Shown: one piece after another, positions 2,554-51,822 of the stretch
How positions within the stretch are numbered: position 1 is the first letter of the stretch
Layout of the letters: every line of letters begins with the position of its first letter
Assembly (NCBI GenBank): GCA_028707125.1
Contig: JAQTUX010000001.1
Span: 725,764-789,763, forward strand
Reading direction: 5' to 3'
Source: Candidatus Omnitrophota bacterium
Lineage (GTDB): Bacteria; Omnitrophota; Gorgyraeia; Gygaellales; JAQTUX01
Length of the DNA stretch: 64,000 bases
Notes under the pieces: model-generated
Told to the model about the DNA's origin: nothing
The model's database searches: none
Seen by the model: only the letters and a program-made list of their open reading frames with translations
Position numbers and translations under genes: made by a program

Positions 2554-3797
2554 AACACCACATACAGTCAGTTGACCCGGAGATTTACAAGGCGATAACC
2601 AGCGAGATCGAGCGCGAGGAGAAGACCATAGAACTCATCGCTTCGGAGAATTTCGCGCCTTTGGCAGTGCTTGAGGCGCAGGGTTCCGTGATGACCAATA
2701 AGTACGCCGAGGGCTATCCTGCCAGCCGCTGGTACGGCGGATGCGAGTTCGTTGACGACGCGGAGCGCCTTGCCATTGAGCGCGCCAAGGAGCTTTTCGG
2801 CGCGGAGCACGCCAACGTGCAGGCGCATTCGGGAACGCAGGCGAATATGGCGGTGTATTTTGCCGCGCTTGAGGTGGGAGATACGGTCATGGCTATGGAC
2901 CTTGCCTGCGGAGGCCACCTTTCCCACGGCCACCCGCACAATTTTTCCGGCAGGTTCTACAAGATCATTCCCTACGGCGTAAACAGGGAAACAGAGCGCA
3001 TTGATATGGATGAGATCCGCCTCCTTGCCAGGAGGCACAGGCCCAAGATGATACTGGTGGGCGCCTCCGCCTATTCGCGCGTATTTGACTTTAAGGAATT
3101 CAGGGACATATGTGATTCGGTTGGGGCGTATCTTTTTGTGGATATGGCTCATATTGCCGGCCTCATCGCGGCGGGGGTCCATCCCAGCCCGTTTCCCTAT
3201 GCTGATTTCGTAACTACTACCACGCATAAGACACTGCGCGGGCCCAGAGGCGGCGTTGTGTTCTGCCGCGGCCAGTTTGCCAAAAAAATTGACGGCTATG
3301 TATTTCCCGGCATACAGGGAGGGCCGCTTATGCACGTTATAGCGGCCAAGGCGATCGCCTTTAAACTCGCGGCGACGGAGGAATTCAAGGCATACCAGCG
3401 CCAGGTGGCAAAGAACGCCAAGGCGCTTGCCGAAGCAATGGCCTCTTTCGGCTACCGGCTGGTGTCGGGCGGTACCGATAATCATCTTGCGCTCGTGGAT
3501 CTGACGCCCAGGAAGGTATGCGGCAGGGACGCGCAGGTGGCGCTTGAGAAGGCCGGTATCACAGTGAATAAGAACCTCATACCTTATGACCGGTTAAGCC
3601 CCATGCTTACCAGCGGAATACGGCTGGGAGCTCCCGCGGTCACTACCAGGGGAATGAAGGAAAATGAAATGAAACAGATCGTTTCATTGATAAACGAAGC
3701 GATCCTGGCGAGGAGCGACGACGGTAAATTGGAGGATATCCGCGGAAGGGCATACGCCTTGACCGCCAGGTTCCCGATCTACCCCGAATTAAAATGA
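2550..3797 (+). CDS. glyA: Serine hydroxymethyltransferase (GTG start)
   Basis: 415 aa. [26 protein letters not shown] and the PLP-lysine region [14 protein letters not shown] are all present. Confidence 0.92.
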
Positions 3798-7385: not shown

Positions 7386-8336
7386 ATGGATATCAAGGGC
7401 TGTGAAATAAAGATCATTCAAGGGGATATAACCGCGCAGAAGGTTGACGCGATAGTCAACGCCGCCAACAATAAGCTGGTCATGGGCGGCGGCGTGGCGG
7501 GCGCGATAAAGCGCAAAGGCGGCAAAGAGATAGAGGATGAAGCTGTCAAAAAAGGCCCCATAGCCATAGGTGAGGCAGTCGCGACTAAGGCGGGCAAACT
7601 CAGCGCGAAGTTTGTGATACACGCCGTGACCATGGGAATGGACTTCCAGACCGACGAGAAAAAGATACGGCTTTCCTGCCGGAACGCGCTGCGGGCCGCC
7701 GAGGAATTAAAAGTAAAGTCCCTTGCCTTTCCCGCGCTTGGCTGCGGAGTGGGGGGATTTTCTCTTGTTGCCGCGGCTAAGATAATGTCTCAGGAAGTGT
7801 TGAGGCATCTAAGATACAGCGATTCGCGGCTTAAAGAGATCGTGTTCGCGCTTTATGATAAGGAGGGTTTTGAAATATTTGACAAGCACGTAAACGGTTA
7901 TTTAGATTATATGCTCAATAAATTAGGCAACGGCCCTTATGTCACCGTGGACGCCTTAATAGAGATGCCTGACAACAGGATAGTTTTAATTGAGCGCCAA
8001 AATCCGCCGTTCGGCTGGGCAATACCCGGCGGGTTTGTGGATTACGGCGAGAGTTTAGAGGACGCGGCCAGGCGCGAGGCAGAAGAGGAGACCGGTTTAA
8101 GGATCACGGGGCTGAAGCAATTCCATACTTATTCAGAACCGAAGAGGGACCCGCGTTTCCACACTATAGGCACGGTATATATTGCTAAAGCCGAAGGCAG
8201 CATCAAGGCAGGTGATGACGCGGCAAAGGCGGCGGCATTTACGCCGGATGAGGCGATGAAGCTGGATCTTGCCTTTGACCATAAGGACATCCTGCGGGAT
8301 TATTTAGAGTATAAGAATAGGGGGGCAGGTGTCTAG
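7386..8336 (+). CDS. Macro domain (ADP-ribose binding/processing) fused to NUDIX hydrolase (ADP-ribose pyrophosphatase-like)
   Basis: The N-terminal [32 protein letters not shown] is a macro domain. The C-terminal [24 protein letters not shown] is a Nudix box. Confidence 0.8.
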
Positions 8337-8710: not shown

Positions 8711-9442
8711 ATGGAGATCACGGTCCAGTATAAAGGCAATATAGTGGTCCTGTCCGTCTCAGGGGAGATCGATATAAACGCTTCAGAGTTGGTGGAGAGG
8801 GTCGGCTGGTGCATCAGGAGCGGTTTCAAGGATATACTCTGCAATTTTGAGGAAGTGAATTTTGTGGATTACGAGGGCCTGTCCGTATTGACCATTGCCT
8901 ATAAGAACGTGATAAATAATAAATGCAGGATCAAGTTTGTGAACGTCCCCGTCTATATAAGGCGGCTTTTTGAACTGGTGCATATGGACAGCGTATTTGA
9001 GGTATACGATAACATGGAACTGGCATTGAACGCGTTTAAGGAAGACAGGGCCATAGCCGAGATACAGAGCAAGAAACTGAGGAGGAGGTTCAGGCGGCTG
9101 CACTTTGAGCAGACAGTGGAATACTGGCCCGGACAGGCGGGCGGCAAGCCGCATAAGGGCAAGATCCTGAATTTGAGCGCCATAGGCGCTTTGATATTCT
9201 GCGACAAGATATATCCGTTAGGCGAGATCATTACTTTGAAGTTTGGCCTTGGGCCGCACATGTCAAAGACAGAACTTGAGGCCAGGGTCGTCTGGCATGT
9301 ATCCAGGGAGCTGCAGCATGAGATCTATCCGGGCATGGGTGTTGAATTCTATAAAATTGATTCTGAGATTCAGGCAAAGATAGTCGCTTTTGTAGAGAGG
9401 AACCTGGCGTTGGACAAAGACGCCTCCGGCTCTACCGCGTAA
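8711..9442 (+). CDS. STAS (anti-sigma-factor antagonist-like) domain fused to a PilZ c-di-GMP-binding domain
   Basis: The N-terminal ITVQYKGNIVVLSVSGEID...EEVNFVDYEGLSVL is a STAS/SpoIIAA-like fold. The C-terminal RRRFRR...NLSAIGALIF matches the PilZ RxxxR and (D/N)xSxxG motifs. An AAGGGAG RBS lies 5 nt upstream of the ATG at 8711. I rejected the longer ORF starting at 8606. Confidence 0.7.
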   Translation: MEITVQYKGNIVVLSVSGEIDINASELVERVGWCIRSGFKDILCNFEEVNFVDYEGLSVLTIAYKNVINNKCRIKFVNVPVYIRRLFELVHMDSVFEVYDNMELALNAFKEDRAIAEIQSKKLRRRFRRLHFEQTVEYWPGQAGGKPHKGKILNLSAIGALIFCDKIYPLGEIITLKFGLGPHMSKTELEARVVWHVSRELQHEIYPGMGVEFYKIDSEIQAKIVAFVERNLALDKDASGSTA

Positions 9443-9456
9443 ACAAGGAGGATGTT

Positions 9457-10497
9457 ATGCTGCGTTTTCTTACCGCTGGAGAATCGCACGGAAGGTGCCT
9501 CGCGGCGATCCTGGAAGGCATTCCCGCGGGGTTAAAGATCAACGCCTACGAGATAAATACCGAGCTGCAGCGCAGGCAGGAGGGTTATGGCAGGGGTAAA
9601 CGCATGCAGATCGAGCAGGATTCGGCCTTGATACTTTCCGGTTTAAGGCGGGGGGTCACTATCGGCTCTCCCATTTGCCTGATGATCAAAAACACCGACT
9701 CCAGGATAAACGAGCTTCCCGACGTTGTCTCTCCCAGGCCGGGTCACGCGGACCTGGCCGGAGTGCTGAAATACGGATTTCAGGACGCGCGGCCTGTGCT
9801 TGAACGCGCCTCTGCCAGAGAGACGGCGGCCAGGACCGCGGTAGGCGCTTTGTGCAAATTGTTCCTGCGCGAGTTTGATATCAATATCAGCAGCCGGGTT
9901 ATTGAGGTTGGCGGGGAGTCAGACAAGGACAAGATGAAGAAACGCGTAGATGCCGCCGTAAAGAAACGGGATACGGTGGGAGGCGTATTTGAAGTAAAGG
10001 CGATAGGGCTGCCTCCGGGCCTGGGCAGTTACGCGCATTTTGACAAGCGGCTTGACGGACGGCTGTCGGCCGCGCTTATGTCCATACCCGGAGTTAAGTC
10101 GGTGGAGATAGGTTTGGGCCTGGGCTACGCGGATAAGTTCGGCTCTGAAGCGCACGACGCGATCTTTTACTCGCGGAAAAAGGGTTTCTATAGAAAGACC
10201 AATAACGCCGGCGGCCTTGAGGGCGGCATGACTAACGGGGAGCCGTTGATCTTACGGTGCTGTATGAAACCGATATCTACCCTGTTCAATCCGCTGCCTT
10301 CCGTGGATTTGAATACGCGCAAGCCCAAAAAAGCGGCGATCGAGCGTTCCGACACCTGCGTGGTATTGTCCGCCGGAGTTGTAGGAGAGGCGGTCTCTGC
10401 CACAGAACTTGCCGGGGTATTGCTGGAGAAGTTCGGCGGCGACTCGCTTTCCGACATAAAGGACAGTTATAAAAATTATTTGAAGCGGATCTCTTAA
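9457..10497 (+). CDS. aroC: Chorismate synthase
   Basis: MLRFLTAGESHGRCLAAILEGIPAGL...GRGKRMQIE is a canonical AroC N-terminus; 346 aa. Confidence 0.9.
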   Translation: MLRFLTAGESHGRCLAAILEGIPAGLKINAYEINTELQRRQEGYGRGKRMQIEQDSALILSGLRRGVTIGSPICLMIKNTDSRINELPDVVSPRPGHADLAGVLKYGFQDARPVLERASARETAARTAVGALCKLFLREFDINISSRVIEVGGESDKDKMKKRVDAAVKKRDTVGGVFEVKAIGLPPGLGSYAHFDKRLDGRLSAALMSIPGVKSVEIGLGLGYADKFGSEAHDAIFYSRKKGFYRKTNNAGGLEGGMTNGEPLILRCCMKPISTLFNPLPSVDLNTRKPKKAAIERSDTCVVLSAGVVGEAVSATELAGVLLEKFGGDSLSDIKDSYKNYLKRIS

Positions 10498-21055: not shown

Positions 21056-23170
21056 ATGAATATCTTACAGATAGTTCCGGAACTGAATGTGGGCGGGGTA
21101 GAGACAGGGACGATAGACCTTGCCAAATACCTTGTAAGGCAGGGCCATAAGGTAGTTGTGATCTCTGCCGGCGGAGAGCTTGTGGCGGGCCTTGAGGCAT
21201 CCGGCGCGAAACACTATTCGTTGCCCGTTCACAGGAAGTCACTGATAAGCATCTTAAAGACAATAGGGAAGGTTGCCAGGGTGATCAGGGACGAAAATAT
21301 CCGTATAGTGCATTGCCGTTCGCGCGTGCCTGCCTGGATAGGTTATTTCGCGGCGCGGATAACGGATACGATATTTATAACTACCTGCCACGGGTTCTAC
21401 AGCACGCATTTCTTCAGTTCCGTGATGGGATGGGGTAAACTCATCATTGCCCCCAGCCAGGCCATAGCCCGCCATATGATCGAGGACTTCGGGGTCCTGC
21501 GGCAGCGCGTTCGTATAGTGCCGAGGAGCGTGGACCTTGAGAGGTTCAGGTTTATCCCGCCCAGGGACAGGGACTGGTCGTGCTTCAATATAGGTATCAT
21601 AGGGCGGCTGAGCCCTATCAAGGGGCACATTGATTTCCTGAAGGCCGTTTCAAAGGTTTTACGCCAGCATCCGGCAATAAAGGTTTGGGTCGTCGGAGAC
21701 GCCGCGCCGGGAAAGCAGCCGTATAAGGAGGAGATAGGCGTTATGGTGCGCCGGCTGGGGCTTTCTCACTGTACCGAATTCCTGGGTAACCAGAAGGACA
21801 TCCCTGGCGTTCTCTCTCAGCTCAATATGCTTGTAATGGCTACGACTACACAGGAGGCATTCGGCAGGGTGATAATCGAGGCGCATGCTTCGGGCGTGCC
21901 GGTAGTGGCAACAAGGGTGGGAGGGGTGGTGGATATCGTAGATGACGGAAAGACCGGATTATTGGTCTCTCCCAATGACCCGGAAGACATGCACAGGGCA
22001 ATGATGAAGATCATAAAGGATGAGAAGCTCAGGAGCAGCTTGGTATATTCCGCTTACGAGAAGGTCAAAAGGGACTTTAACGTTGAGCTTATGGTCTCAA
22101 ATACGCTTAAGGTTTATGAAGAGGCGGGCAGCAAATTCAACGTTCTGATCATAAAGCTCGGGGCAGTGGGCGATATAATACTGTCTGTGCCGGCACTCAG
22201 GGCGGTCAGGAAGAATTTCAAAAAGGATAATTACAAGATCGCCTGTGTTGTGGGAAAAGAGGCGAGGGAGCTTCTGGACAGATGCCCCTATATAGATGAG
22301 TTGATCCTTTACGATTATAAGGGTAAAGACAAGGGAGTCAGGGGCCTCCTGAAGACGGGTAAACTCCTGCGTAAAAAGTATACTGATTTCGTTATAGACC
22401 TGCAGAATAACCGCACCAGCCATATTTTAAGCCGGCTTTCCATGTCTTTAAAAAGATACGGGTACGATAACGGGAAGTTCAGTTTTCTTCTTAACAGGAA
22501 GGTGAGGTGGCCGGAGAAAAGATTGTCTCCTGTTGAGCACCAGTTCAGGATACTGCGTATGCTGGGCATAGAGCTCGAGGATGACCGGCTGGAGCTTTGG
22601 CCTAAAGACGAAGACAGGCGGCGCGTGGAGGACTTTCTCGGTTCGCAATTTTTAGCCCGGCCCAAATATCTGGCAGGCATGAATATAGGCGCTTCCGGCA
22701 GATGGCAGTCAAAACAATGGCCGAAGGAATACGTGGTTAAGTTGATCGACGGCCTCTCCAACATCGGCGTGCGTTGCATACTTACCGGCCAGGAACGCCA
22801 TTTGCCTGAGGCAAAGGAGCTTTACGCGATGGCCAGGGCGCAGAGCAAGCCCATAATCGCCTGCGGTAAGACCAACCTTAACGAACTGGCCTGCCTCATA
22901 GAGAAATGCGACGTGTTTATAACTCAGGATTCGGCCCCCATGCATATGGCGGCGGCGCTGGGGGTCCCTTTTGTGGCAATGTTCGGGCCAACCGATCCGG
23001 TGAAACACCTGCCTCCGGCAGAAAAATGCGTCCTGCTCAAGAAAGACCTGGCTTGTTCGCCTTGCTACAAGCCGAAATGCAAAGACGCTCTGTGCATGTC
23101 CGGCATAACCGTCAATGAGGCGCTTGAGGCGGTGGAGAAATTATTGAGAATAGAAAGCAGTCATGATTAG
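21056..23170 (+). CDS. Bifunctional glycosyltransferase: N-terminal GT4 (group 1) domain fused to C-terminal GT9 ADP-heptose:LPS heptosyltransferase domain
   Basis: The N-terminal MNILQIVPELNVGGVETGTIDLAKYL and the EX7E-like region are GT4. The C-terminal VLIIKLGAVGDIILSVPALRAVRKNF and ...ITQDSAPMHMAAALG are GT9; 704 aa. Confidence 0.75.
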   Translation: MNILQIVPELNVGGVETGTIDLAKYLVRQGHKVVVISAGGELVAGLEASGAKHYSLPVHRKSLISILKTIGKVARVIRDENIRIVHCRSRVPAWIGYFAARITDTIFITTCHGFYSTHFFSSVMGWGKLIIAPSQAIARHMIEDFGVLRQRVRIVPRSVDLERFRFIPPRDRDWSCFNIGIIGRLSPIKGHIDFLKAVSKVLRQHPAIKVWVVGDAAPGKQPYKEEIGVMVRRLGLSHCTEFLGNQKDIPGVLSQLNMLVMATTTQEAFGRVIIEAHASGVPVVATRVGGVVDIVDDGKTGLLVSPNDPEDMHRAMMKIIKDEKLRSSLVYSAYEKVKRDFNVELMVSNTLKVYEEAGSKFNVLIIKLGAVGDIILSVPALRAVRKNFKKDNYKIACVVGKEARELLDRCPYIDELILYDYKGKDKGVRGLLKTGKLLRKKYTDFVIDLQNNRTSHILSRLSMSLKRYGYDNGKFSFLLNRKVRWPEKRLSPVEHQFRILRMLGIELEDDRLELWPKDEDRRRVEDFLGSQFLARPKYLAGMNIGASGRWQSKQWPKEYVVKLIDGLSNIGVRCILTGQERHLPEAKELYAMARAQSKPIIACGKTNLNELACLIEKCDVFITQDSAPMHMAAALGVPFVAMFGPTDPVKHLPPAEKCVLLKKDLACSPCYKPKCKDALCMSGITVNEALEAVEKLLRIESSHD

Positions 23171-24185
23171 GAAGGCATTATTAATATTGTCGGCGGTATT
23201 AATTGGCATAGTTTGCGGACTGTTGGCATCAGAGTTACTTCTGCGTATAAATCCGGTACTCGGTTATTCTTGTGATTCATTTAAGTCAAGGGTCAATCCT
23301 TCTCCTTTTGCTAGCGGATCAGTGGCCAGATATCGCCCTTCGGACCTGCTGGGTTATGAATTGATACCAAATTCTCATCCCGATATAAACTCTTATGGGT
23401 TGATAGGCAGGGAGTATAAATTAGCCAAGGATAAAGGGGTATACCGTATACTTGTTATCGGCGATTCTATTGCTGAGCAGGGTTATGGGAGCGTGTTCTT
23501 AGAGGCCCGCTTGAATACAGACCCTCTGCTTAGCAAGAGGTACGTATTTCAGGTTTGGACGCTCGGCACTGGCAGTTACGACGTACGACGCTACGCCAGG
23601 TTCTTAGAACATAGAGGATTGGATTATAATCCCGACATGGTTATTACTTTCCTTTTTATGAATGATTTTGAACTAAATATGAATATTTATTATAAGGCCA
23701 AAAATGACGTCATTGAATATTGTTTCCCGATATCCGAGGTATCAAGGACCTATAATGTCAACCCTTTTCTTATGAAGCATTCGCATCTTTATCGGTTTAT
23801 AACCCTGGGGCTTAACAAACTCTTCTTATTAAATGAAAGAAAAGCAGGCGATATGCTTATGAAGCAGGAGTCCGGGGCAGATTATTTACAGAAGATAAAG
23901 GAAATATGCTCTCAAAACCAAATTACCTTGTTGCTGACAATATTTCCTTATCTTAAGCCGCTTAGTGAGTACGATGAGTATCGCAGGGGCAATTATAGAT
24001 GCCTTAACACAGCCGCAGGCGAATTAGGGTTGGATTATATAAACTTATATGACGGTTTATCGGCATATGATCTTTACAGTTTAAGGGAGGATATTAATGA
24101 TGATATGCATCCTAACCTGAAAGGGCATCGGATAATTTCAGGGATTATTCATGATTATATATTGAAGAAAGGATTGATTAAATAA
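23163..24185 (+). CDS. Membrane-anchored SGNH/GDSL-like hydrolase family protein
   Basis: An N-terminal TM helix is followed by YRILVIGDSIAEQG (a GDS(x) block). The gene is conspicuously AT-rich compared with its neighbours. Confidence 0.5.
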   Translation: MIRKALLILSAVLIGIVCGLLASELLLRINPVLGYSCDSFKSRVNPSPFASGSVARYRPSDLLGYELIPNSHPDINSYGLIGREYKLAKDKGVYRILVIGDSIAEQGYGSVFLEARLNTDPLLSKRYVFQVWTLGTGSYDVRRYARFLEHRGLDYNPDMVITFLFMNDFELNMNIYYKAKNDVIEYCFPISEVSRTYNVNPFLMKHSHLYRFITLGLNKLFLLNERKAGDMLMKQESGADYLQKIKEICSQNQITLLLTIFPYLKPLSEYDEYRRGNYRCLNTAAGELGLDYINLYDGLSAYDLYSLREDINDDMHPNLKGHRIISGIIHDYILKKGLIK

Positions 24186-39562: not shown

Positions 39563-40717
39563 TTGAGAAAAAATATTCCAGTTATTGCCCTTTTGTTTTT
39601 TATATGGTGCGGGTATGCAAGCGCTCAGCCGGTGATGGAAGTTGAGCCGAAAGAATTTTCGCTCGGCGATCTGCGGGAAGGGAAGGTGTCCAGGCATGAA
39701 TTGGCAATAAGGAACGCCGGCGACGAAGAGCTGCGCATAAACCCGATCAATGTAAGCTGCAGCTGCGTGCAGATAGTGGAACCGAAGTCATCGTTTGTTC
39801 TGCCTCCCAAACAGGAAGGCAAAGTGGTGTTTACCTTTGATACTACAGGTTTTAGAGGCGAGCAGAAGAAATATTTATTTCTCAGTTCCAACGACCCGCA
39901 AAGGCAGAATGTGAGGATGCGAATAACGGCGAATATCAAAGATTCGCCTCAAAGTTTTCTGGAGCGCTTCAAAAGCTTCACCTTCAGCGCCATTCTGGTT
40001 GCCGGCCTGGCAGACGGATTTAATCCTTGCGCCTTTACCGTGCTCGTATTTTTTGTTTCTTTTCTGGCGTTTGTGGGCTACAGGAAAAGAGAGATGGTTG
40101 CCGTAGGCGCGATGTTCATACTGGCAGTTTTTCTTACTTATCTCTTGATCGGCCTGGGCCTGTTCAAGGTCTTCATGCAGGCAGAGGTATTCGGGCTGTT
40201 TTCAAAAGTCATTTATATATTGACGGGGGCCATAGCCATAGTGCTGGCTGCCTTCAGTTTCTACGACGCGTATATCTTTAAGAAGACGAAGGACCCGGAG
40301 AGGATGAAGCTAAAACTCCCCGGCCTGATAAAAAAACAGATCCACGGGGTCATAAGGGGGGGCACGGACATACGTGATGACAGCCCCTCGTGCTTCAGGT
40401 TTTTAAAATTCCTCATACCGGCTTTTGTAAGCGGATTTTTAGTGACACTGCTTGAATCCGTCTGCACGGGCCAGTTGTATGTCCCGACCATCGCGTATAT
40501 CTTCGGCATGCCGGAACTTAAGGCAAGGGCGCTGGCATACCTGTTGCTTTATAACCTTATGTTCATCCTGCCGTTGGTCGGTATATTTATTTTCGGGGTG
40601 GCAGGCGTCACTTCTTCCGATTTTGCCAAATTCGCACGCAGGCATATCTTTCTGGTCAAGGTGGTTACCGCTTTGGTATTTTTATTGTTAGGTTCGGTAC
40701 TTCTAATTGTGAGGTAA
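39563..40717 (+). CDS. Secreted DUF1573 (Ig-like) domain fused to a DsbD/CcdA-family transmembrane thiol-disulfide transporter domain (TTG start)
   Basis: A signal peptide is followed by LAIRNAGDEELRINPINVSCSCVQIV (DUF1573-like). The TM domain carries Cys-containing helices (GFNPCAFTVLVFF; LESVCTGQ), as in the DsbD beta-domain/CcdA. Confidence 0.55.
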   Translation: MRKNIPVIALLFFIWCGYASAQPVMEVEPKEFSLGDLREGKVSRHELAIRNAGDEELRINPINVSCSCVQIVEPKSSFVLPPKQEGKVVFTFDTTGFRGEQKKYLFLSSNDPQRQNVRMRITANIKDSPQSFLERFKSFTFSAILVAGLADGFNPCAFTVLVFFVSFLAFVGYRKREMVAVGAMFILAVFLTYLLIGLGLFKVFMQAEVFGLFSKVIYILTGAIAIVLAAFSFYDAYIFKKTKDPERMKLKLPGLIKKQIHGVIRGGTDIRDDSPSCFRFLKFLIPAFVSGFLVTLLESVCTGQLYVPTIAYIFGMPELKARALAYLLLYNLMFILPLVGIFIFGVAGVTSSDFAKFARRHIFLVKVVTALVFLLLGSVLLIVR

Positions 40718-40720
40718 GAG

Positions 40721-42472
40721 ATGGGCGTAAGATTCAAGATTTTGACGATATCTTTAGGCCTGATATTGTTTTTGTCCTGCGTTAAGGCGCGCGCGGCGCA
40801 GGTACAGATAGTATTTACCGGCGAGGCGCATTCGGCGTTATACCCTTGCGACTGCCCCAAAGAGCCGGACGGCGGAGTTGCCAGGCGCGCCGGCGCCATA
40901 AAAGAACTAAGAAAGAAGGCGGGCGGCGTTATTCTTCTTGAGACAGGGGGGTTCTTTGCCGGAGGTATGCAGGACACATATTCTCAGAACGTTGACTTCG
41001 ACAAGAACAGGACACAGGTTTATCTCAGGTCGCTTGAGCTTATGGGCTATGATGCCGTAGGCATAGGAGACGACGAATTCAATTTCGGCCCCGATTTCTT
41101 AAAAGAGGTTGTTCAGAAAAGCGGCCTGAGATTTCTTTCGGCGAATGTGGGCATAGAAAAGATAGCGCCTTACACGATCAAGGAAATAGAGGGTATGCGT
41201 TTCGGCATAATAGGGGTAACTACAATGTCCGCGAGGCAGAAGGCGGGTATTGTGGGCATAAAGGATGCCTTTAGTTCAGTCAAGCAATACGCGGCAGAGC
41301 TCAAGGCTCAGGGCGCGGACTTCATAATACTTCTTAGCCATATGGGAGAAGAGGAAGACGTGAGGCTGCTGGATGAGGTTTCCGGCATAGACATAGTCGT
41401 CGTTTCTCATTCGAGGGTTTCCAATGAGATCTACTCAAAGAGAGGCGAGGTTATTCTGGTGAGGCCGGCCTGGCAGGGGCGCCGTCTTGGAATATTAAAG
41501 CTGGAGATAAAGGATAAGAAAATCATTGATTCCAAGGCAGAGGACATGCGCCTTTCCGACCAGGTCCCCGACGATCCGGACGCCCTTTCCATATTACCCC
41601 AATGTTTTCAGGATTCGGACTGTAAAAAGGGCCAGCTTAAGGGCGCCTGCGGCAATCCCGGGACTAAAGATGCAAGCTGCAGTTTCAGCCGGCCCCTGGA
41701 GGTAAAACTGACGGTTATTAACTCTAAGCAGTGCCTGGTCTGCAATACGGAGCAGACGATCGGATTGCTCAAGTCATTACTGCCCGGCCTTGATGTGAAA
41801 TACCTTGATCATAACAGCAGGGCTGCCAGGAAGATCATTTCAGAAGTTAGCGCCGATACCTTGCCCGTGTATCTTTTGGATAAGGGCGTGAAAAAGGCGG
41901 CCAGATACGGCGAGTTGAAGCCCAATCTCACGGAGAAAAAGGATTTTATCATGGTCAATCCTCAGTTTGCGGGCGTAGGTTATTTTATGAACAGAGAGAG
42001 GATCAAACCGAGATTAGACGTATTTTTGACCCTCTATGATAAGAATACCCCGAAAGTACTGGACGCGGTAAGGAAATTTAACGCGCGGGTGCATTTTCTG
42101 GCAACACAAACTCCTGCCGGTGATTTCAGCGCTCCGGGCGGCCTTGCCGAGATAGAAGAGGATTTGAGGTCTGCCTGTGTCATGAATTTGTACCCGGATA
42201 AGGCCTACGACTACCTGCGCTGCCGTTCAGCCAATATCGCCAGCTCCTGGTGGGATGACTGCGCCCGGGATATGGATCTGGAAAAGATAAGATCGTGCGC
42301 CAAGTCGGAAGACGGCAGGAAGATGTTGAAGGAAAACGTCGCTCTGAATAAGGAGCTGCAATTGATGCACGGGCCCACGTACCTCATAAATAACGTAGAG
42401 ATCGCCTCTTCCGTTGAGGCGCCTCAGCCGGCTGAGTTGAAGCGGCTTATTGAAGAAAAAAATGGGAGATAG
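40721..42472 (+). CDS. Secreted two-domain protein: degenerate 5'-nucleotidase/metallophosphatase-like N-domain + Cys-rich linker + DsbA-like thioredoxin-fold domain (CLVC active site)
   Basis: The N-terminal layout (I.FTGEAHS...GGVILLETGG...GYDAVGIGDDEF...LSAN) parallels UshA-type 5'-nucleotidases but with metal ligands replaced. The C-terminal half has SKQCLVCN (CxxC) and a cis-Pro-like HGPTYLINN. Confidence 0.5.
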   Translation: MGVRFKILTISLGLILFLSCVKARAAQVQIVFTGEAHSALYPCDCPKEPDGGVARRAGAIKELRKKAGGVILLETGGFFAGGMQDTYSQNVDFDKNRTQVYLRSLELMGYDAVGIGDDEFNFGPDFLKEVVQKSGLRFLSANVGIEKIAPYTIKEIEGMRFGIIGVTTMSARQKAGIVGIKDAFSSVKQYAAELKAQGADFIILLSHMGEEEDVRLLDEVSGIDIVVVSHSRVSNEIYSKRGEVILVRPAWQGRRLGILKLEIKDKKIIDSKAEDMRLSDQVPDDPDALSILPQCFQDSDCKKGQLKGACGNPGTKDASCSFSRPLEVKLTVINSKQCLVCNTEQTIGLLKSLLPGLDVKYLDHNSRAARKIISEVSADTLPVYLLDKGVKKAARYGELKPNLTEKKDFIMVNPQFAGVGYFMNRERIKPRLDVFLTLYDKNTPKVLDAVRKFNARVHFLATQTPAGDFSAPGGLAEIEEDLRSACVMNLYPDKAYDYLRCRSANIASSWWDDCARDMDLEKIRSCAKSEDGRKMLKENVALNKELQLMHGPTYLINNVEIASSVEAPQPAELKRLIEEKNGR

Positions 42473-45015: not shown

Positions 45016-48000
45016 ATGAGTAAGTCGCTCTGCATGAAATCCCGCCACCTAATAATTATAGGTATATCACTCTTTTTGAATGCGAGTTATGTTTGTTATG
45101 CTAGAAATGACGAAAGCCAAGATTTGAAATTATTTCAATCAGCCCTGCATGACCAAAAAGACCTTAAATGGCAGGAAGGCCTCGCTAAATTCCGGCAGAT
45201 TGCAGCATTCTATCCACAGACTCAAACCGCTCAAAAAGCCCATATTGAAATCGGGAAATTCTATAAATACAATCGTAACTGGCAAAGGGCCATTGACGAA
45301 TACCGTCAGGCCATAGCCATTGATCCTTATTCCCGCCCGGCCCACGATGCCAGGACTGCCGAAGCCGCGACATATTATTTTCGTCAAGATTTCCCACGGG
45401 CCCTGGAGCTCTTTGAAGCAGTGCTTTTAGAAACGAAGGATTGGGACCAGATAAAATACTGTTCATACTGGATAAAGGAAATAAGGCGTAGAATGTCTTT
45501 TGCGCCTGAGGAGTCGTTTTCTTGCGGCCCTGAGAGCCTGAAGATTGCGTTCAGGATTTTAGGGATTGATTTTTCCGATAAGGAATTGAGCAGGGCATTT
45601 ACTTATAAAGAGGGCAAATCTGTTTCAATCTCTGATCTATCCAGTGTTGCCTCAGGAAAAGGGCTTAAGCCCAAAATAGTAAAAATAAACAGGAATGAAG
45701 TCCAAAATTTGACCGCGCCTTTTATCGCGCTTGTTGATCCGGAGCATTATGTGGTAGTTACCGGAATTGAAGATTCTCAGGTAAAATTCATTGATCCGGC
45801 TAATCAGAGCGGCTATCAATTAGAAGGCCTTGATAAATTCATCGGCGATTTTAAGGGCTATGCCCTGATTTTCTTGGAAGACTCCAGGCTTGCCAAGGCT
45901 AATTACGTAGTCCCTACTAATGAAGAAGCGCAAGAACTGAAGGGCGGAATATGTTCCTGTTGTCCTCCCGCGGCATTAGGCGGCCGGCAGAGCAATCCAA
46001 ATGTAGAGTTTGACGGCAGCCCACCCTGTTCTCCGGGTATGCCTTCCTGGATGGTTAATATGATAAGCCTCAATCTTGTTGTCCAAGATATAGATTTTAG
46101 ATACATCTCCAGAGGGGTGCCTGCGGAGCTCATCCGCACATATAACGGCGATGATCCGCGCGAAGGGATATTCGGCCGCTCCTGGACATTTAACTATAAT
46201 GTTTCTTTGGTAGAAAACTCTGATAGTAGTATAGACATACGAAGAGGAGACGGCAGGGTGGACCATTTCACCTGGACCGGTGTCCGCTATCAGGGGCCAA
46301 ATGATGTTTATGATACGCTGGCTAAGAATGCCGATGGGACATATACGTTAAAGATTAAGAGAGATAAAACCATACAGGATTTTGATGCCTGGGGCCGGCT
46401 CATTGATATTAAGGACCGTAACGATAACGCTATAACATTTACCTATAATAGCGAAGCCAATCTTATTCGTATTACCGACCCTAATGGCAAGAACACGGTT
46501 CTATCTTACGGTGCGAATAGGAAAGTTTCTCGTATAACCCTGCCTGATGGACGATATGCAAGATTTATTTATGATACCAATAACAATTTGATTCAAACTG
46601 TGGATATGAAGGGCGCTACTTCAAGCTATACCTATGATAGCGCCAGTTACATTACCGCTATAACCACACCGCATCGCGGTATGACCGCTATTGAGTATGG
46701 AGTAGGCAGTTATGGTGAGGACCCAAGCGGTAGATCGCACTATTATGTTAAATCCATCACCGATGATGCAGGGAATAAGAGGAGATATGCAATCGATGAA
46801 TGGCATCATCAGACAGGCGTCCTGGATAGCCGTAATAATACAATGCTATATGAAGATAATCTTTCGGGATATACAAGCGCCATAACGACGCCCTCCGGGA
46901 ATAAAATAACTTTTATATATGACTATTACGGTAACCGGGAGAAAATTATAGATGCTTCCGGCAATGTAACCGTTTTGGCCTATGATTCAAGGGGCAATAC
47001 TATTTCTATAACCGATACCCTGAATAATAAACTTACCCTTGACTACGATACCAATGATAATCTTATCCAAGCCGCCGATCCCAAAGGAGGTATCTATAAT
47101 TTTAATTATGACGGCAAGGGCAACCTTATTTCTGTCAGGGATCCGGAGAATCAGATAACAGGTTTTGCCTATAATAATTTTGGGCAGATAAATCGTATTG
47201 TTGATGCAAACGGGGGAACAACGGACTTTGAATATGATACGTCAGGTAATCTTATTAACGTTACCAACCCTTCAGGCAGGAAGACCGTTTATAAATATGA
47301 TACATTAGGCAGAGTCAGGTCCTTATCTGACCCTGAAGGCAATACCTTTTCCTATACTTATGATGGAGTTGACCATTTGACCAGGATAGACAATCCCGAT
47401 GAGGACCCGATAAAGTATTTCTACAACTGCTGTAACATTACCAGGGTTAGGGATGGACAAGGGACAATGCGTTTTACCTATGACGCCTTAGGCAGGATGA
47501 GGTCATTCAGGAACTATGATTCTAAACTCATCGCCTACGAATATGATACAGAGGGTAACCTGTCCGGCTTGATTTATCCGGATGGAAAAAAGGTCTCCTA
47601 TGAATATGATAAAGACAGCCGTTTAATTAAGGTCACGGACTGGCTGGGTAACGCAACACGATATAATTACGATGCGGTAGGCAACCTCATCTCCGTTGTT
47701 TCTCCGGGTTTAATCACAACCTATAAATATGATTCTGTAAATCGGCTGATTAGGTTAGCGAATTATAACTCCAACACATTGGATATTGTTTCTATTTTTA
47801 ATTTTACCCTTGACCCGCTTGGCAACCGCACCCAGGTTAAGCGCCTTCTTCCATTAAATATCCCTGATTTTAACATAGCCGATTCTAGTTACTCCTATAA
47901 CAGCGATAACCAGCTCACCTCTGCCACAGGCAGGAGCTTTGAATATGATGACAATGGTAATCTCACCAGGCAGATTGCCGGCGCTGCAACCACGAATTTC

Positions 48001-48852
48001 ACCTACAACCACGACAACCAGCTCACCCAATATACCTCTGGTTCAACTAATCTATCATATCGCTATGACTCTTTTGGCAACCGCATCCGTAAAACGCAGG
48101 GCTCGCAGGTAACCAAATACATCGTTGACCCCAATCGTTCCCTTCCCAGCGTGCTTTGCGAGACCGATGCCAAGGGAAACATCAGCGCCTACTACATCTA
48201 TGGCCTTGGCCTTATCTCTAAAATCATCGGAAATAACTCCTACTTCTACCAGTATGACGGCCTTGGCTCAACTATAGCCCTCAGCGACTCAGCCGGCGCC
48301 ATCAAGAACAAATACGCCTACGATGACTTCGGCAACCTTGCTACTAACTCCACAGAGACCATTGACAATCCCTTCAAGTATGTGGGCAGATTTGGCGTGA
48401 TGACGGATACGCCAGATCTCTTGTATATGAAGGCGAGGTATTATATGCCCAGCGTGGGCAGGTTTATCAGCAAGGATCCGATTGGGTTAGCGGGTGGGAT
48501 GAATATGTATGGGTATGTGGGTGGGAATCCGATAAATCTAATAGATCCATGGGGACTGAGACGCTGGGGGCCTCGGTGGATTGAAATATTTGTTCCCGGA
48601 TATGGATTTTATGGAGGTCCTTTTAGGACTGATCCTAATTTTCAGGTAATCCCCGAAGATACCATGGATGAGTTATTTATGGAGCACGATAGAGGTTGGG
48701 CAAGCGATCAATGTAGCATTTCTAACAAGGGTCTATATTATGATCTTAAAAGTTTGCCACTTAATCCAAATAGGTGGAAGAGAAAGTCTAAGAGTATTGT
48801 ATGGGCTGTAATATATAGCATGGGGGCTACGGCTTATTTCTTTTGGTTTTAG
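45016..48852 (+). CDS. Secreted RHS/YD-repeat polymorphic toxin: signal peptide + TPR-like region + peptidase C39-like domain + YD repeats + RHS core (DPxGL) + 97-aa C-terminal variable domain of unknown type
   Basis: A C39-like domain spans about 45493-45885 (Cys in SFSCGPESL, His in EHYVVVTG). Many YD repeats (YTYDSAS, YEYDTEGNL, YKYDSVNRL...) lead to the RHS core ...ARYYMPSVGRFISKDPIGLAGGMNMYGYVGGNPINLIDPWGL. The CT domain starts at 48559 (RRWGPRW...HDRGW...) and ends in a hydrophobic helix. Confidence 0.85.
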   Translation: MSKSLCMKSRHLIIIGISLFLNASYVCYARNDESQDLKLFQSALHDQKDLKWQEGLAKFRQIAAFYPQTQTAQKAHIEIGKFYKYNRNWQRAIDEYRQAIAIDPYSRPAHDARTAEAATYYFRQDFPRALELFEAVLLETKDWDQIKYCSYWIKEIRRRMSFAPEESFSCGPESLKIAFRILGIDFSDKELSRAFTYKEGKSVSISDLSSVASGKGLKPKIVKINRNEVQNLTAPFIALVDPEHYVVVTGIEDSQVKFIDPANQSGYQLEGLDKFIGDFKGYALIFLEDSRLAKANYVVPTNEEAQELKGGICSCCPPAALGGRQSNPNVEFDGSPPCSPGMPSWMVNMISLNLVVQDIDFRYISRGVPAELIRTYNGDDPREGIFGRSWTFNYNVSLVENSDSSIDIRRGDGRVDHFTWTGVRYQGPNDVYDTLAKNADGTYTLKIKRDKTIQDFDAWGRLIDIKDRNDNAITFTYNSEANLIRITDPNGKNTVLSYGANRKVSRITLPDGRYARFIYDTNNNLIQTVDMKGATSSYTYDSASYITAITTPHRGMTAIEYGVGSYGEDPSGRSHYYVKSITDDAGNKRRYAIDEWHHQTGVLDSRNNTMLYEDNLSGYTSAITTPSGNKITFIYDYYGNREKIIDASGNVTVLAYDSRGNTISITDTLNNKLTLDYDTNDNLIQAADPKGGIYNFNYDGKGNLISVRDPENQITGFAYNNFGQINRIVDANGGTTDFEYDTSGNLINVTNPSGRKTVYKYDTLGRVRSLSDPEGNTFSYTYDGVDHLTRIDNPDEDPIKYFYNCCNITRVRDGQGTMRFTYDALGRMRSFRNYDSKLIAYEYDTEGNLSGLIYPDGKKVSYEYDKDSRLIKVTDWLGNATRYNYDAVGNLISVVSPGLITTYKYDSVNRLIRLANYNSNTLDIVSIFNFTLDPLGNRTQVKRLLPLNIPDFNIADSSYSYNSDNQLTSATGRSFEYDDNGNLTRQIAGAATTNFTYNHDNQLTQYTSGSTNLSYRYDSFGNRIRKTQGSQVTKYIVDPNRSLPSVLCETDAKGNISAYYIYGLGLISKIIGNNSYFYQYDGLGSTIALSDSAGAIKNKYAYDDFGNLATNSTETIDNPFKYVGRFGVMTDTPDLLYMKARYYMPSVGRFISKDPIGLAGGMNMYGYVGGNPINLIDPWGLRRWGPRWIEIFVPGYGFYGGPFRTDPNFQVIPEDTMDELFMEHDRGWASDQCSISNKGLYYDLKSLPLNPNRWKRKSKSIVWAVIYSMGATAYFFWF

Positions 48853-48905
48853 GAACTAAAATAGTTCTTCAATAGAGTAAACTAATTTTATCTGAGGGAG
48901 TTAAA

Positions 48906-49136
48906 ATGATTAAAAAAAGGAAAATTGAAATAACGGTTACAGTAACATTTTTAACAGCCTTAGGTTTAATCTTTTTTTATGGATTCAAATATTTTGCAGG
49001 ATTCAAATATGCTTCACTACTTGATCAACAAATCATTTCTATCTTAGGAATAATTTTTGTTTTATGTTTGTTATATTTTGTTTATAGGTTTTTAGAGTGG
49101 TTTATTAGAAGAATAAAATCTTTATTTAACAGATGA
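48906..49136 (+). CDS. Small two-TM membrane protein; candidate cognate immunity protein for the RHS C-terminal toxin
   Basis: A 76-aa AT-rich ORF immediately 3' of the RHS gene, with two hydrophobic helices. The call rests on position, not homology. Confidence 0.4.
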   Translation: MIKKRKIEITVTVTFLTALGLIFFYGFKYFAGFKYASLLDQQIISILGIIFVLCLLYFVYRFLEWFIRRIKSLFNR

Positions 49137-49155
49137 CAAGGACCGGGATAGAAAT

Positions 49156-51822: not shown

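Follow-up and report, generated by a model that had tools for sequence, protein, structure and literature searches.

Here we describe a locus at positions 45016-51822 of a 64,000-nucleotide (nt) window, the whole stretch analysed, of contig JAQTUX010000001.1 from a Candidatus Omnitrophota bacterium. We consider it probable that this locus encodes a Sec-exported RHS polymorphic toxin, its cognate immunity protein and, probably, an accessory protein, which would operate through the five-step mechanism proposed below. It comprises three open reading frames (ORFs) on the plus strand, encoding 1278, 76 and 888 amino acids (aa) in the ORF list. The C-terminal toxin domain (CT) of the 1278-aa RHS protein is a phospholipase A2 (PLA2) fold with a catalytic His-Asp dyad, as revealed independently by motif, profile and fold. 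The features of the locus are as follows.

45016..48852, plus strand: RHS polymorphic toxin gene, 1278 aa from M1 or 1272 aa from Met7 (nt 45034); domains from Pfam and NCBIfam
45016..45102, plus strand: putative Sec-type signal peptide by sequence (aa 1-29), with a basic n-region, the h-region LIIIGISLFL and a cleavage-type site between C-Y-A and R
45103..45495, plus strand: TPR region (aa 30-160), ending in the highly conserved ETKDWDQIKYCSYWIKE segment (aa 139-155)
45511..45873, plus strand: Peptidase_C39 domain (aa 166-286), PF03412
45523-45525, 45745-45747 and 45793-45795, plus strand: C39 catalytic residues Cys170, His244 and Asp260
45925..45948, plus strand: double-glycine leader-like motif EAQELKGG (aa 304-311), with predicted C39 cleavage after Gly311
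45949..45963, plus strand: Cys cluster I-C-S-C-C (aa 312-316), directly after the predicted scissile bond
46054..46269, plus strand: DUF6531 (aa 347-418), PF20148, E 3.5e-11, 43.7 bits; the element preceding the YD shell in RHS proteins
46270..48318, plus strand: YD/RHS-repeat shell (aa 419-1101), PF05593 and TIGR01643
48319..48558, plus strand: Rhs-associated core (aa 1102-1181), containing RYYMPSVGRFISKDP and ending in LIDPWGL
48559..48849, plus strand: CT (aa 1182-1278, 97 aa), cysteine-poor PLA2-like fold; motif residues are the Ca-loop-like Y1196-G-F-Y-G-G-P1202, catalytic His1224-Asp1225, Trp1228 and Asn1237
48906..49136, plus strand: 76-aa two-transmembrane immunity candidate, 53 nt downstream of the toxin gene, with the motif LCLLYFVYRF
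49156..51822, plus strand: 888-aa secreted protein with a signal peptide, about five PPC/collagenase-CBD-like repeats, an Ig-like domain and a C-terminal YD pair
51706-51798, within the 888-aa gene: the lone YD-repeat pair (aa 851-881)

Overall architecture of the RHS protein

The protein displays the features by which RHS polymorphic toxins are recognised, namely YD repeats, a core with the PxxxxDPxGL motif, an exchanged CT and a co-varying downstream ORF. The shell matches PF05593 (RHS_repeat) in 12 stretches (E 4.5e-75) and TIGR01643 in 10 stretches (E 1.8e-61), and is 64% identical over its full length to that of an RHS protein from an Omnitrophota metagenome-assembled genome (MAG; locus L007). 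The core scores 75.9 bits against TIGR03696, whose cut-off is 32.5. Cores of the Rhs/TcC family cleave after the DPxGL motif, and an aspartyl autoproteolysis site is predicted after Leu1181.

At the N-terminus, residues 11-29 form the sole hydrophobic 19-mer of the protein, with a Kyte-Doolittle hydropathy (KD) of 1.64, and equivalent N-termini are found in the homologues of loci L007, L008 and L011. An identical contig from another sequencing run (Logan contig L015; 0 mismatches over 9116 nt, 100% identical) has the gene called from Met7 (window 45034), so that the start is either M1 or M7; a start at Met7 gives a more typical signal-peptide n-region (MKSRH...). A lipoprotein anchor was rejected, as the N-terminus has no lipobox. 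The TPR region matches TPR_2 of Pfam at 29.8 bits against a cut-off of 27, with the best stretch at aa 74-104, in addition to weak YbgF and BamD-like matches, and its terminal segment is conserved in an alignment of five homologues (A5). Pfam searches of the 64-kb window revealed no PAAR/VgrG-binding region of the type VI secretion system (T6SS) type and no vgrG, chaperone or other T6SS genes; the RHS protein has a Sec-type N-terminus instead.

A first-pass annotation of this DNA, made from the letters and translations, had read the protein as a Sec signal, a TPR region and a C39 peptidase with intact Cys/His/Asp, followed by a YD shell and an RHS core ending in DPWGL. Hydropathy, the Pfam and NCBIfam matches and alignment to ComA bear out this architecture, and the strings SFSCGPESL, EHYVVVTG, IDPA and DPWGL, as well as the 97-aa tail, were all found at the coordinates given in that annotation.

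The C-terminal domain has a cysteine-poor PLA2-like fold

An exhaustive phmmer search of 1.84 billion representatives retrieved 42 homologues of the CT, most of which are RHS C-termini following ...NPxNxxDPxGL; a word-index homology search gave only one relative for the CT and one for the N-terminus. Alignment of 31 sequences (A1) revealed the family consensus PxYGNYGGPG...PxDxMDxLFxxHDxGW...LPxNPxxW, in which Y1196, G1201, H1224 and D1225 are invariant and the position +3 from the catalytic Asp is W or Y (W1228 in the window copy). Searching all PDB sequences with the A1 profile returned secreted PLA2s as all of the top 60 matches (best E 8.7e-4), with alignments that span the Ca loop through the HD dyad. 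Among the 31 relatives, 13 weakly match the parvovirus-type PLA2-like family PF08398 (best E 3.4e-3), four match PF00068, one PF05826 and one PLA2G12.

The structure predicted by AlphaFold2 with the A1 alignment has a predicted local distance difference test score (pLDDT) of 92.8 and a predicted template modelling score (pTM) of 0.85. Structural similarity search of this model using Foldseek revealed PLA2s as 10/10 top PDB matches, and against viral models about the top 35 matches are parvovirus or densovirus VP1 PLA2 regions. Moreover, hhalign of the CT family gave probabilities of 88.7% to bovine PLA2 and 56.5% to AAV2 VP1u, with the HD dyads aligned; both comparator sequences were entered by hand, the bovine one agreeing with 1bp2 fragments. 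The window CT contains one Cys in its 97 residues and A1 has no conserved Cys column, so the domain is devoid of multiple conserved disulfides. Parvoviral PLA2s likewise lack a disulfide framework. The motifs DxC[ST], CxxHxxxYxN and C, by which the 1kp4-like Tox-PLA2 family is defined by Zhang et al. 2012 (PMC3482391), are absent from A1.

The earlier description of the CT as matching no toxin domain that its author recognised is thus superseded by assignment to the PLA2 fold. Its companion proposal, a membrane-targeting effector, survives in part. We infer that the CT would hydrolyse glycerophospholipids of the target-cell membrane, which keeps the membrane as its target; the rationale of a hydrophobic terminal helix does not stand. 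The best KD window of this helix, its last 19 residues, reaches 1.37 against a threshold of 1.6, most homologues have charged residues in it, and the model places it as helix 4 within the fold, at pLDDT >90. On these grounds we rejected it as a membrane anchor.

A candidate immunity gene and the exchange of toxin cassettes

Hydropathy analysis of the 76-aa ORF revealed two transmembrane (TM)-grade segments (approximately aa 7-27 and 36-66), which together with the basic N- and C-termini predict an N-in/C-in inner-membrane peptide. Searches of this ORF, and of the CT by itself, against Pfam and NCBIfam at E <= 10 gave nothing usable. By scanning metagenome contigs with a narrower CT alignment, we found four loci (L003-L006) in which 71-79-aa two-TM ORFs, 36-49% identical to the 76-aa ORF, lie directly downstream of PLA2-like CTs:

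L003, 1022-1237: immunity homologue
L004, 1127-1366: immunity homologue
L005, 296-514 and 1181-1420: two immunity homologues
L006, 6317-6556: immunity homologue

The family shares the invariant motif L-x-L-L-Y-F-x-Y-R-F and has a GC content of 0.21-0.28 in every locus; being family-wide, this low value led us to reject the 23% GC of the window copy as a sign of recent transfer. A two-TM ORF follows the PLA2-like CT in each of the six cassettes with readable downstream sequence (the window and five in L003-L006), and where the CT is of another type, the ORF behind it is unrelated and the two-TM ORF is absent. The 76-aa ORF is therefore well supported by synteny as the putative cognate immunity gene. 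The first-pass proposal of a two-TM immunity protein is upheld in both its placement beside homologous CTs and its two predicted segments, the protective role itself being putative. The ORF is apparently unannotated in GenBank, because the accessions of purA (MDD4909796.1) and the 888-aa protein (MDD4909798.1) flank a single gene.

Relatives with the TPR-C39 N-terminus are found in the genome loci L007 (the Omnitrophota MAG), L008, L009 and L010 and in the Logan locus L001, with shell identities of 52-64% in the closest of them (L001, L007 and L008). Shell homology to L001, L007, L009 and L010 runs to the last shell residue (DPxGL), and the window CT has no match there. Their CTs differ: L001 has a glycine-zipper type and L007 a Cys-rich 88-mer; those of L009 and L010, and also that of L011, are Gly-rich. 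The RHS protein of L006 (1513 aa), whose N-terminus is of another kind (PKD, without C39), has a PLA2-like CT with the immunity ORF downstream, which indicates that the two travel together as a cassette.

Orphan cassettes, which the first-pass annotation had marked as worth seeking, are lacking from the 64-kb window, where tblastn found no further RHS, CT or immunity copy; they do occur in relatives. Locus L005 (1-4252) is an orphan array of three CT fragments, each with a small ORF, beside an insertion sequence (IS)-type transposase; in its third cassette (3236-3658) the PLA2-like CT has diverged further and the ORF behind it is of another kind, encoding a 140-aa multi-TM protein. Similarly, three orphan rhs-CT fragments, with a small ORF behind each, lie downstream of the main gene in L007 (14372-18201). 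Upstream of the RHS genes, reading of the sequence without profiles placed a GspE/PilB-like ATPase in L007 (7640-9352), just before the TPR-C39-RHS gene; in L008 (2300-5675), an ExeA-like ATPase and a secretin-like protein were placed by sequence reading only.

A C39 peptidase domain with a putative in-cis double-glycine site

The match to PF03412 (E 8e-13 to 1.6e-13; 48.8-51.1 bits against a gathering score of 22) assigns aa 166-286 to Peptidase_C39, so that the region around residues 160-290, flagged earlier for checking, indeed belongs to a peptidase fold. Superposed in alignment on the ComA PEP domain (PDB 3k8u), C170, H244 and D260 correspond to C17, H96 and D112, and the triad is invariant in A5. 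The RHS protein has no ABC domain; NCBIfam transporter models cover its peptidase part only, at 11-23 bits against cut-offs of at least 500. A TPR-C39 N-terminus on an RHS protein is as unusual as first supposed, since profile search found about eight to ten relatives among 5.8 billion proteins. Next in similarity to the C39 part, at 24% identity, come about 50 secreted proteins of about 326 aa with C39 (P0052-P0103); these stand-alone exported proteins are apparently archaeal, one being labelled uncultured Methanobrevibacter by its source.

About 25 residues past C39, every homologue has the motif [E/Q/K]-[L/M/A]-x-x-[L/I]-[K/Q/R]-G-[G/S] followed by [I/V]-C-x-C-C. It agrees with the published double-glycine leader consensus LX3E(I/L)X2(I/V)XG(G/A) (PMC3140520) at positions -8, -7, -4, -2 and -1, and a distant clade adds Leu at -12 (LTKKEMEDIKGG). 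The consensus regular expression has exactly one match per protein in 7/7 homologues (35-60% identity), always 133-135 aa after the catalytic Cys and inside an otherwise variable linker; shuffled sequences give a chance expectation of 0.04-0.19 matches per protein. Because this conserved single match sits at a fixed offset, we propose self-cleavage, and the pattern suggests that the C39 domain cuts its own chain in cis after Gly311. The earlier idea of a release or processing module is thereby strengthened, with cleavage itself predicted from the conserved site. Precursor genes with double-glycine leaders were not seen in the neighbourhood (window ORF list).

Directly after the predicted cut, C313, C315 and C316 are invariant in A5, and this Cys cluster at P1'-P5' may gate cleavage by its redox state. 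For comparison, the CdiA-like StbD has a C39 toxin domain that cleaves its own chain in cis behind a neighbouring Gly-Gly, and does so under reducing conditions only (bioRxiv 10.64898/2026.05.07.723447).

In-frame stop codons in related loci

In the clade of L011, L013 and L014, the RHS gene appears split after ...RGGVCEC by an in-frame TGA, which is also present in L012:

L011, nt 7965-7967: in-frame TGA
L013, nt 1276-1278: in-frame TGA
L014, nt 1294-1296: in-frame TGA

This codon aligns exactly with the third Cys of the GG-[IV]CxCC motif (window Cys316) and is in frame with the downstream DUF6531-NHL-RHS ORF. It is kept in three alleles that have diverged by >10%, and the changes in the 45-nt "spacer" that follows are synonymous. 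Past the UGA, at a distance of 11 nt, begins a hairpin whose pairing is kept via a U.G wobble; its folding energy in L011 is unexceptional compared to shuffles (z -0.87), and an Rfam scan gave no meaningful match to a selenocysteine insertion sequence (SECIS) element at this site. Global reassignment of TGA in L011 was rejected, as TGA is the ordinary stop of PPDK, GAPDH and PGK on that contig. Altogether, the TGA is a candidate selenocysteine codon for the last Cys of the cluster.

The L011/L012 gene has a further in-frame stop (TAG, L011 nt 8925-8927) within its NHL-repeat region, aligned with the Tyr of a repeated WGSY motif; L013 does not have this stop, and its frame stays open for 991 codons except at the TGA. 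In L001, an in-frame TGA at nt 9973-9975 lies inside the C39 domain, aligned with window Gly216, and the same frame continues beyond it. On that contig the TGA stop is otherwise used by the RHS gene only, the other 10 genes ending in TAA or TAG; the codon could reflect a pseudogene, a sequencing error or recoding.

The 888-aa neighbour protein

The third ORF encodes a secreted protein with sub-threshold Pfam matches to PPC (PF04151), Big_7 and RHS_repeat, a match to Kre9_KNH at 25.3 bits (cut-off 24.6), and similarity to the collagenase 5sv5_A (E 2e-3). Its gene contains DNA repeats with a period of 321-330 nt, and the coding sequence includes, at 50582-50615, a perfect inverted repeat of 16 nt whose arms (GTAGCGGAAAGTTTAT/ATAAACTTTCCGCTAC) are separated by 2 nt. 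A shorter homologue (34% identity) with the same YD-pair end is encoded directly upstream of the L001 RHS gene, and in L009 a 212-aa secreted protein beginning with a YD pair is encoded just upstream of the RHS gene. Lone YD pairs thus occur on secreted neighbours in 3/7 loci (window 51706-51798, L001 7908-9347 and L009 8991-9629); the pair is C-terminal in the first two and directly follows the signal peptide in L009. Such a pair may serve as a docking tag for the RHS shell, and the 888-aa protein would then, more speculatively, be a docked adhesin-like or accessory subunit.

Genomic context and composition

The remainder of the window carries housekeeping and lipopolysaccharide (LPS) biosynthesis genes, including topA, kdtA, lpxK, heptosyltransferases, LptC/A, serA, purA, uppS, cdsA, dxr, rseP, ispG, nusA and infB; in view of the LPS genes, the host is a diderm. 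The neighbours of the island are purA and OmpA-family genes, with the RHS gene starting 15 nt after purA, and counts of promoter and terminator signals at the island are no higher than chance. Exact-sequence matching gave the GenBank accessions of purA, the 888-aa protein and IF-2 (MDD4909809.1).

The AT-rich block seen at 45.0-51.8 kb in the first pass is real: windowed GC is about 0.51 in the flanks and drops to 0.40-0.44 from 45 to 52 kb, the block as a whole being at about 0.42. The 1278-, 76- and 888-aa genes have GC contents of 0.439, 0.234 and 0.429, and GC contents at third codon positions (GC3) of 0.46, 0.18 and 0.40, respectively, compared to 0.508 +/- 0.027 and 0.612 +/- 0.052 for the remaining 53 window genes; at third positions the island is about 3 standard deviations out. 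In the relatives, RHS gene and flanks have GC values of 0.34/0.34, 0.42/0.42, 0.41/0.41 and 0.47/0.49, against 0.44 and 0.51 in the window. No tRNA, IS element, integrase, or att-like or flanking direct repeat was found at the island borders. From composition, horizontal acquisition of the block is plausible. Of the original case for it, the lower GC than the flanks stands; mobility signatures are missing, and the AT-richness of the immunity gene is shared by its family everywhere.

The only other clearly low-GC gene of the window encodes a GDSL-like lipase/acylhydrolase within the LPS glycosyltransferase cluster (23163-24185; GC 0.396, GC3 0.419). A few kb upstream of the RHS gene lie a DUF1573/Ig-like protein fused to a multi-TM region (39563-40717) and a 583-aa protein without Pfam match (40721-42472), whose C-terminal half matches the L001 ORF upstream of purA. 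DUF1573 genes also occur directly upstream of RHS or PPC genes in L001 (7517-7906) and L007 (9391-9807).

Proposed mechanism and alternative readings

We propose that the locus works in five steps. The signal peptide would take the RHS protein across the inner membrane, after which the TPR-C39 part would recognise the fused E304-AQELKGG-311 segment and cut after Gly-Gly in cis; the product would be an RHS cocoon of about 967 residues beginning with I-C-S-C-C, whose Cys cluster may make the cut redox-gated. As in other members of the family, the Rhs core would then cleave after DPWGL1181, the 97-aa toxin staying enclosed in the shell. The PLA2-fold toxin, with its YGxYGGP loop and His1224-Asp1225, would presumably hydrolyse membrane glycerophospholipids. 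In sibling cells, the 76-aa two-TM inner-membrane protein would neutralise the toxin, a role suggested by its conserved synteny.

Several observations weigh against this reading. The window revealed no route of export across the outer membrane. C39 peptidases have an oxyanion-hole Gln six residues before the Cys; that of ComA aligns with Glu165, and the position is D, S or R in homologues, owing to which the catalytic efficiency of C39 may be low, and a single-sequence structure model of the N-terminal module (pLDDT 49.8) is unusable for docking the leader in the C39 groove. The window CT does not match the Pfam PLA2 models even at E <= 10. Its Ca loop reads YGFYGGPF compared to the family's YGNYGGPG, the third Gly being Phe1203, although function may survive because the Ca ligands are backbone carbonyls; moreover, Asn1237 stands where most members have Asp (aligned to the PLA2 network Asp). 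Finally, the 888-aa type of partner lies beside the RHS gene in only 2/7 loci.

Regarding its origin, the block might instead be an old, lineage-typical Omnitrophota locus whose lower GC is gene-specific and a matter of codon usage, a reading that we hold to be quite possible, at somewhat short of an even chance. The borders bare of tRNA, integrase, IS element and direct repeat, the tight packing after purA with promoter and terminator signals at chance, and the family-wide AT-richness of the immunity gene all agree with it, as do the placement of the L001 locus within about 7 kb of purA, with a shared gene upstream of purA, and the presence of QueH close to the RHS genes of L001 and L011. Against these stand a GC3 of 0.40-0.46 compared to 0.61 +/- 0.05, a gap for which amino-acid composition cannot account, and the equality of RHS gene and flanking GC in relatives; the closest homologues come from genomes of about 0.41-0.42 GC, which fits import from a lower-GC relative. 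The C39 domain, for its part, might be no self-releasing enzyme but a leader-binding pseudo-enzyme or a trans-acting periplasmic protease, with KGG-CxCC as a hinge or a metal/disulfide site. Here the Cys/His/Asp triad is invariant, and HlyB-type C39-like pseudo-domains lose the catalytic Cys. Each protein has a single consensus-type motif at a constant offset, double-glycine precursor genes were not seen in the neighbourhood, and in-cis GG cleavage by a toxin-borne C39 is demonstrated for StbD-CT (bioRxiv 10.64898/2026.05.07.723447). We therefore regard this alternative as fairly improbable, notwithstanding the replaced oxyanion Gln, the lack of a usable docking model and the existence of stand-alone periplasmic C39 proteins acting in trans, such as FapD (PMC5557850).

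As for the toxin, an unclassified membrane-inserting or pore-forming effector, anchored by the C-terminal helix and devoid of enzymatic activity, would explain the missing Pfam match of the window CT, the moderate hydrophobicity of its last 19 residues (KD 1.37) and a membrane-embedded immunity protein, as is common for pore-formers. It is very hard to reconcile with a His-Asp dyad and Ca-loop residues invariant across 31 homologues, with top PDB profile matches that are all PLA2s, and with a terminal helix that is mostly charged in homologues and packed in the fold; we give it very little credence. If the CT is a PLA2-like enzyme, its target might still be archaeal, eukaryotic or unrelated bacterial prey, the toxin being mainly a predation or host-attack effector and not a weapon of kin competition. 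Omnitrophota are reported as ultra-small predators with loci resembling the type II secretion system (T2SS; bioRxiv 10.1101/2023.11.21.568195), the RHS genes of L007 and L008 are preceded by T2SS- or type IV pilus-like ATPase and secretin genes, and PLA2s are classic anti-eukaryotic toxins. By contrast, a tightly linked, co-varying immunity gene implies that producer-like cells are susceptible, and orphan CT/immunity arrays (L005, L007) are a signature of intraspecific polymorphic-toxin conflict (PMC3482391); the ester-linked phospholipids on which PLA2 acts are bacterial or eukaryotic, not archaeal. We thus consider predation as the main role unlikely. Kin competition through an exported, immunity-linked PLA2-like toxin remains our preferred reading. 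An extension of it, in which TPR-C39-GG-CxCC is an undescribed self-contained release module with a redox-active Cys cluster (selenocysteine in the sister clade) and YD pairs recruit adhesin subunits, is put forward tentatively and may well not hold in full.

The locus bears on a poorly understood matter, the release and activation of Sec-dependent RHS toxins in diderms outside the T6SS and Tc paradigms, for which a leader peptidase of the C39 type, built into the toxin that also carries its substrate motif, would be a simple mechanism. It also points to a cysteine-poor PLA2-like toxin clade missed by current profile libraries, and would add a candidate membrane-attacking weapon to the repertoire of the uncultured, ultra-small, reportedly predatory Omnitrophota. 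The Cys/TGA pair of the L011 clade, if true, would be an unusual selenoprotein context.

Comparison with known systems

The RHS protein resembles the Sec-dependent RHS toxins, such as Bacillus subtilis WapA and the 'T2SS'-class RHS toxins of Zhang et al. 2012 (PMC3482391), in its signal peptide, YD shell, core ending in DPxGL, swappable CT and directly downstream immunity gene, with orphan cassettes in relatives. It differs from them in an N-terminus made of TPR, Peptidase_C39, a double-glycine motif and CxCC, and, the host being a diderm, an export step beyond that of WapA-type toxins would be needed. In Zhang et al. 2012 (PMC3482391), the releasing peptidases are HINT, ZU5, PrsW, caspase, MCF1-SHE, PVC-metallopeptidase, PL1 and OTU; C39 is not included among them and appears there only as a C-terminal toxin type. 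The N-terminal TPR-C39 with an in-cis double-glycine site is a rare putative release module, apparently new to the literature.

Like the C39 domains of bacteriocin ABC exporters (ComA PEP 3k8u; peptidase-containing ABC transporters, PCATs), that of the window belongs to PF03412, has an alignable triad and is predicted to act on a substrate of double-glycine type. Unlike in PCATs, it is not fused to an ABC transporter, lacks the oxyanion Gln and has its substrate motif in the same polypeptide, C-terminal to the peptidase; lying behind a Sec signal, it would be periplasmic or extracellular, compared to cytoplasmic in PCAT exporters. StbD-CT is similar in placing C39 inside a polymorphic toxin beside Gly-Gly, the in-cis cut and redox control being demonstrated for StbD and predicted here; StbD-CT has cysteines near the active site, and the window protein has its Cys cluster at the predicted cut site. 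However, the StbD C39 is itself the C-terminal toxin, cleaves topoisomerases and has GG upstream, whereas the window C39 is N-terminal and constant, with GG downstream and a separate PLA2-like domain as the toxin.

As read from its sequence and model, the toxin is a new cysteine-poor branch of the known PLA2 toxin fold with a new candidate immunity family. Compared to the plant (2wg7), animal and Streptomyces PLA2s, the window CT, with its single Cys, lacks the disulfide framework, and in this it is alike to the parvovirus VP1u PLA2 (PF08398). It also differs from Tox-PLA2 in lacking DxC[ST]/CxxHxxxYxN and in coming with a dedicated two-TM immunity family, which would be the first candidate for a PLA2-type polymorphic toxin, as the 2012 survey gives no immunity protein for Tox-PLA2 (PMC3482391). 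Finally, the pairing of a periplasm-acting phospholipase with an adjacent immunity gene probably follows the same logic as the T6SS Tle1-5/Tli pairs. Nevertheless, the Tle1-5 effectors are T6SS-delivered and have an unrelated fold (alpha/beta hydrolase or phospholipase D), and the Tli proteins are periplasmic or lipoproteins, whereas the immunity candidate described here is a two-TM peptide.

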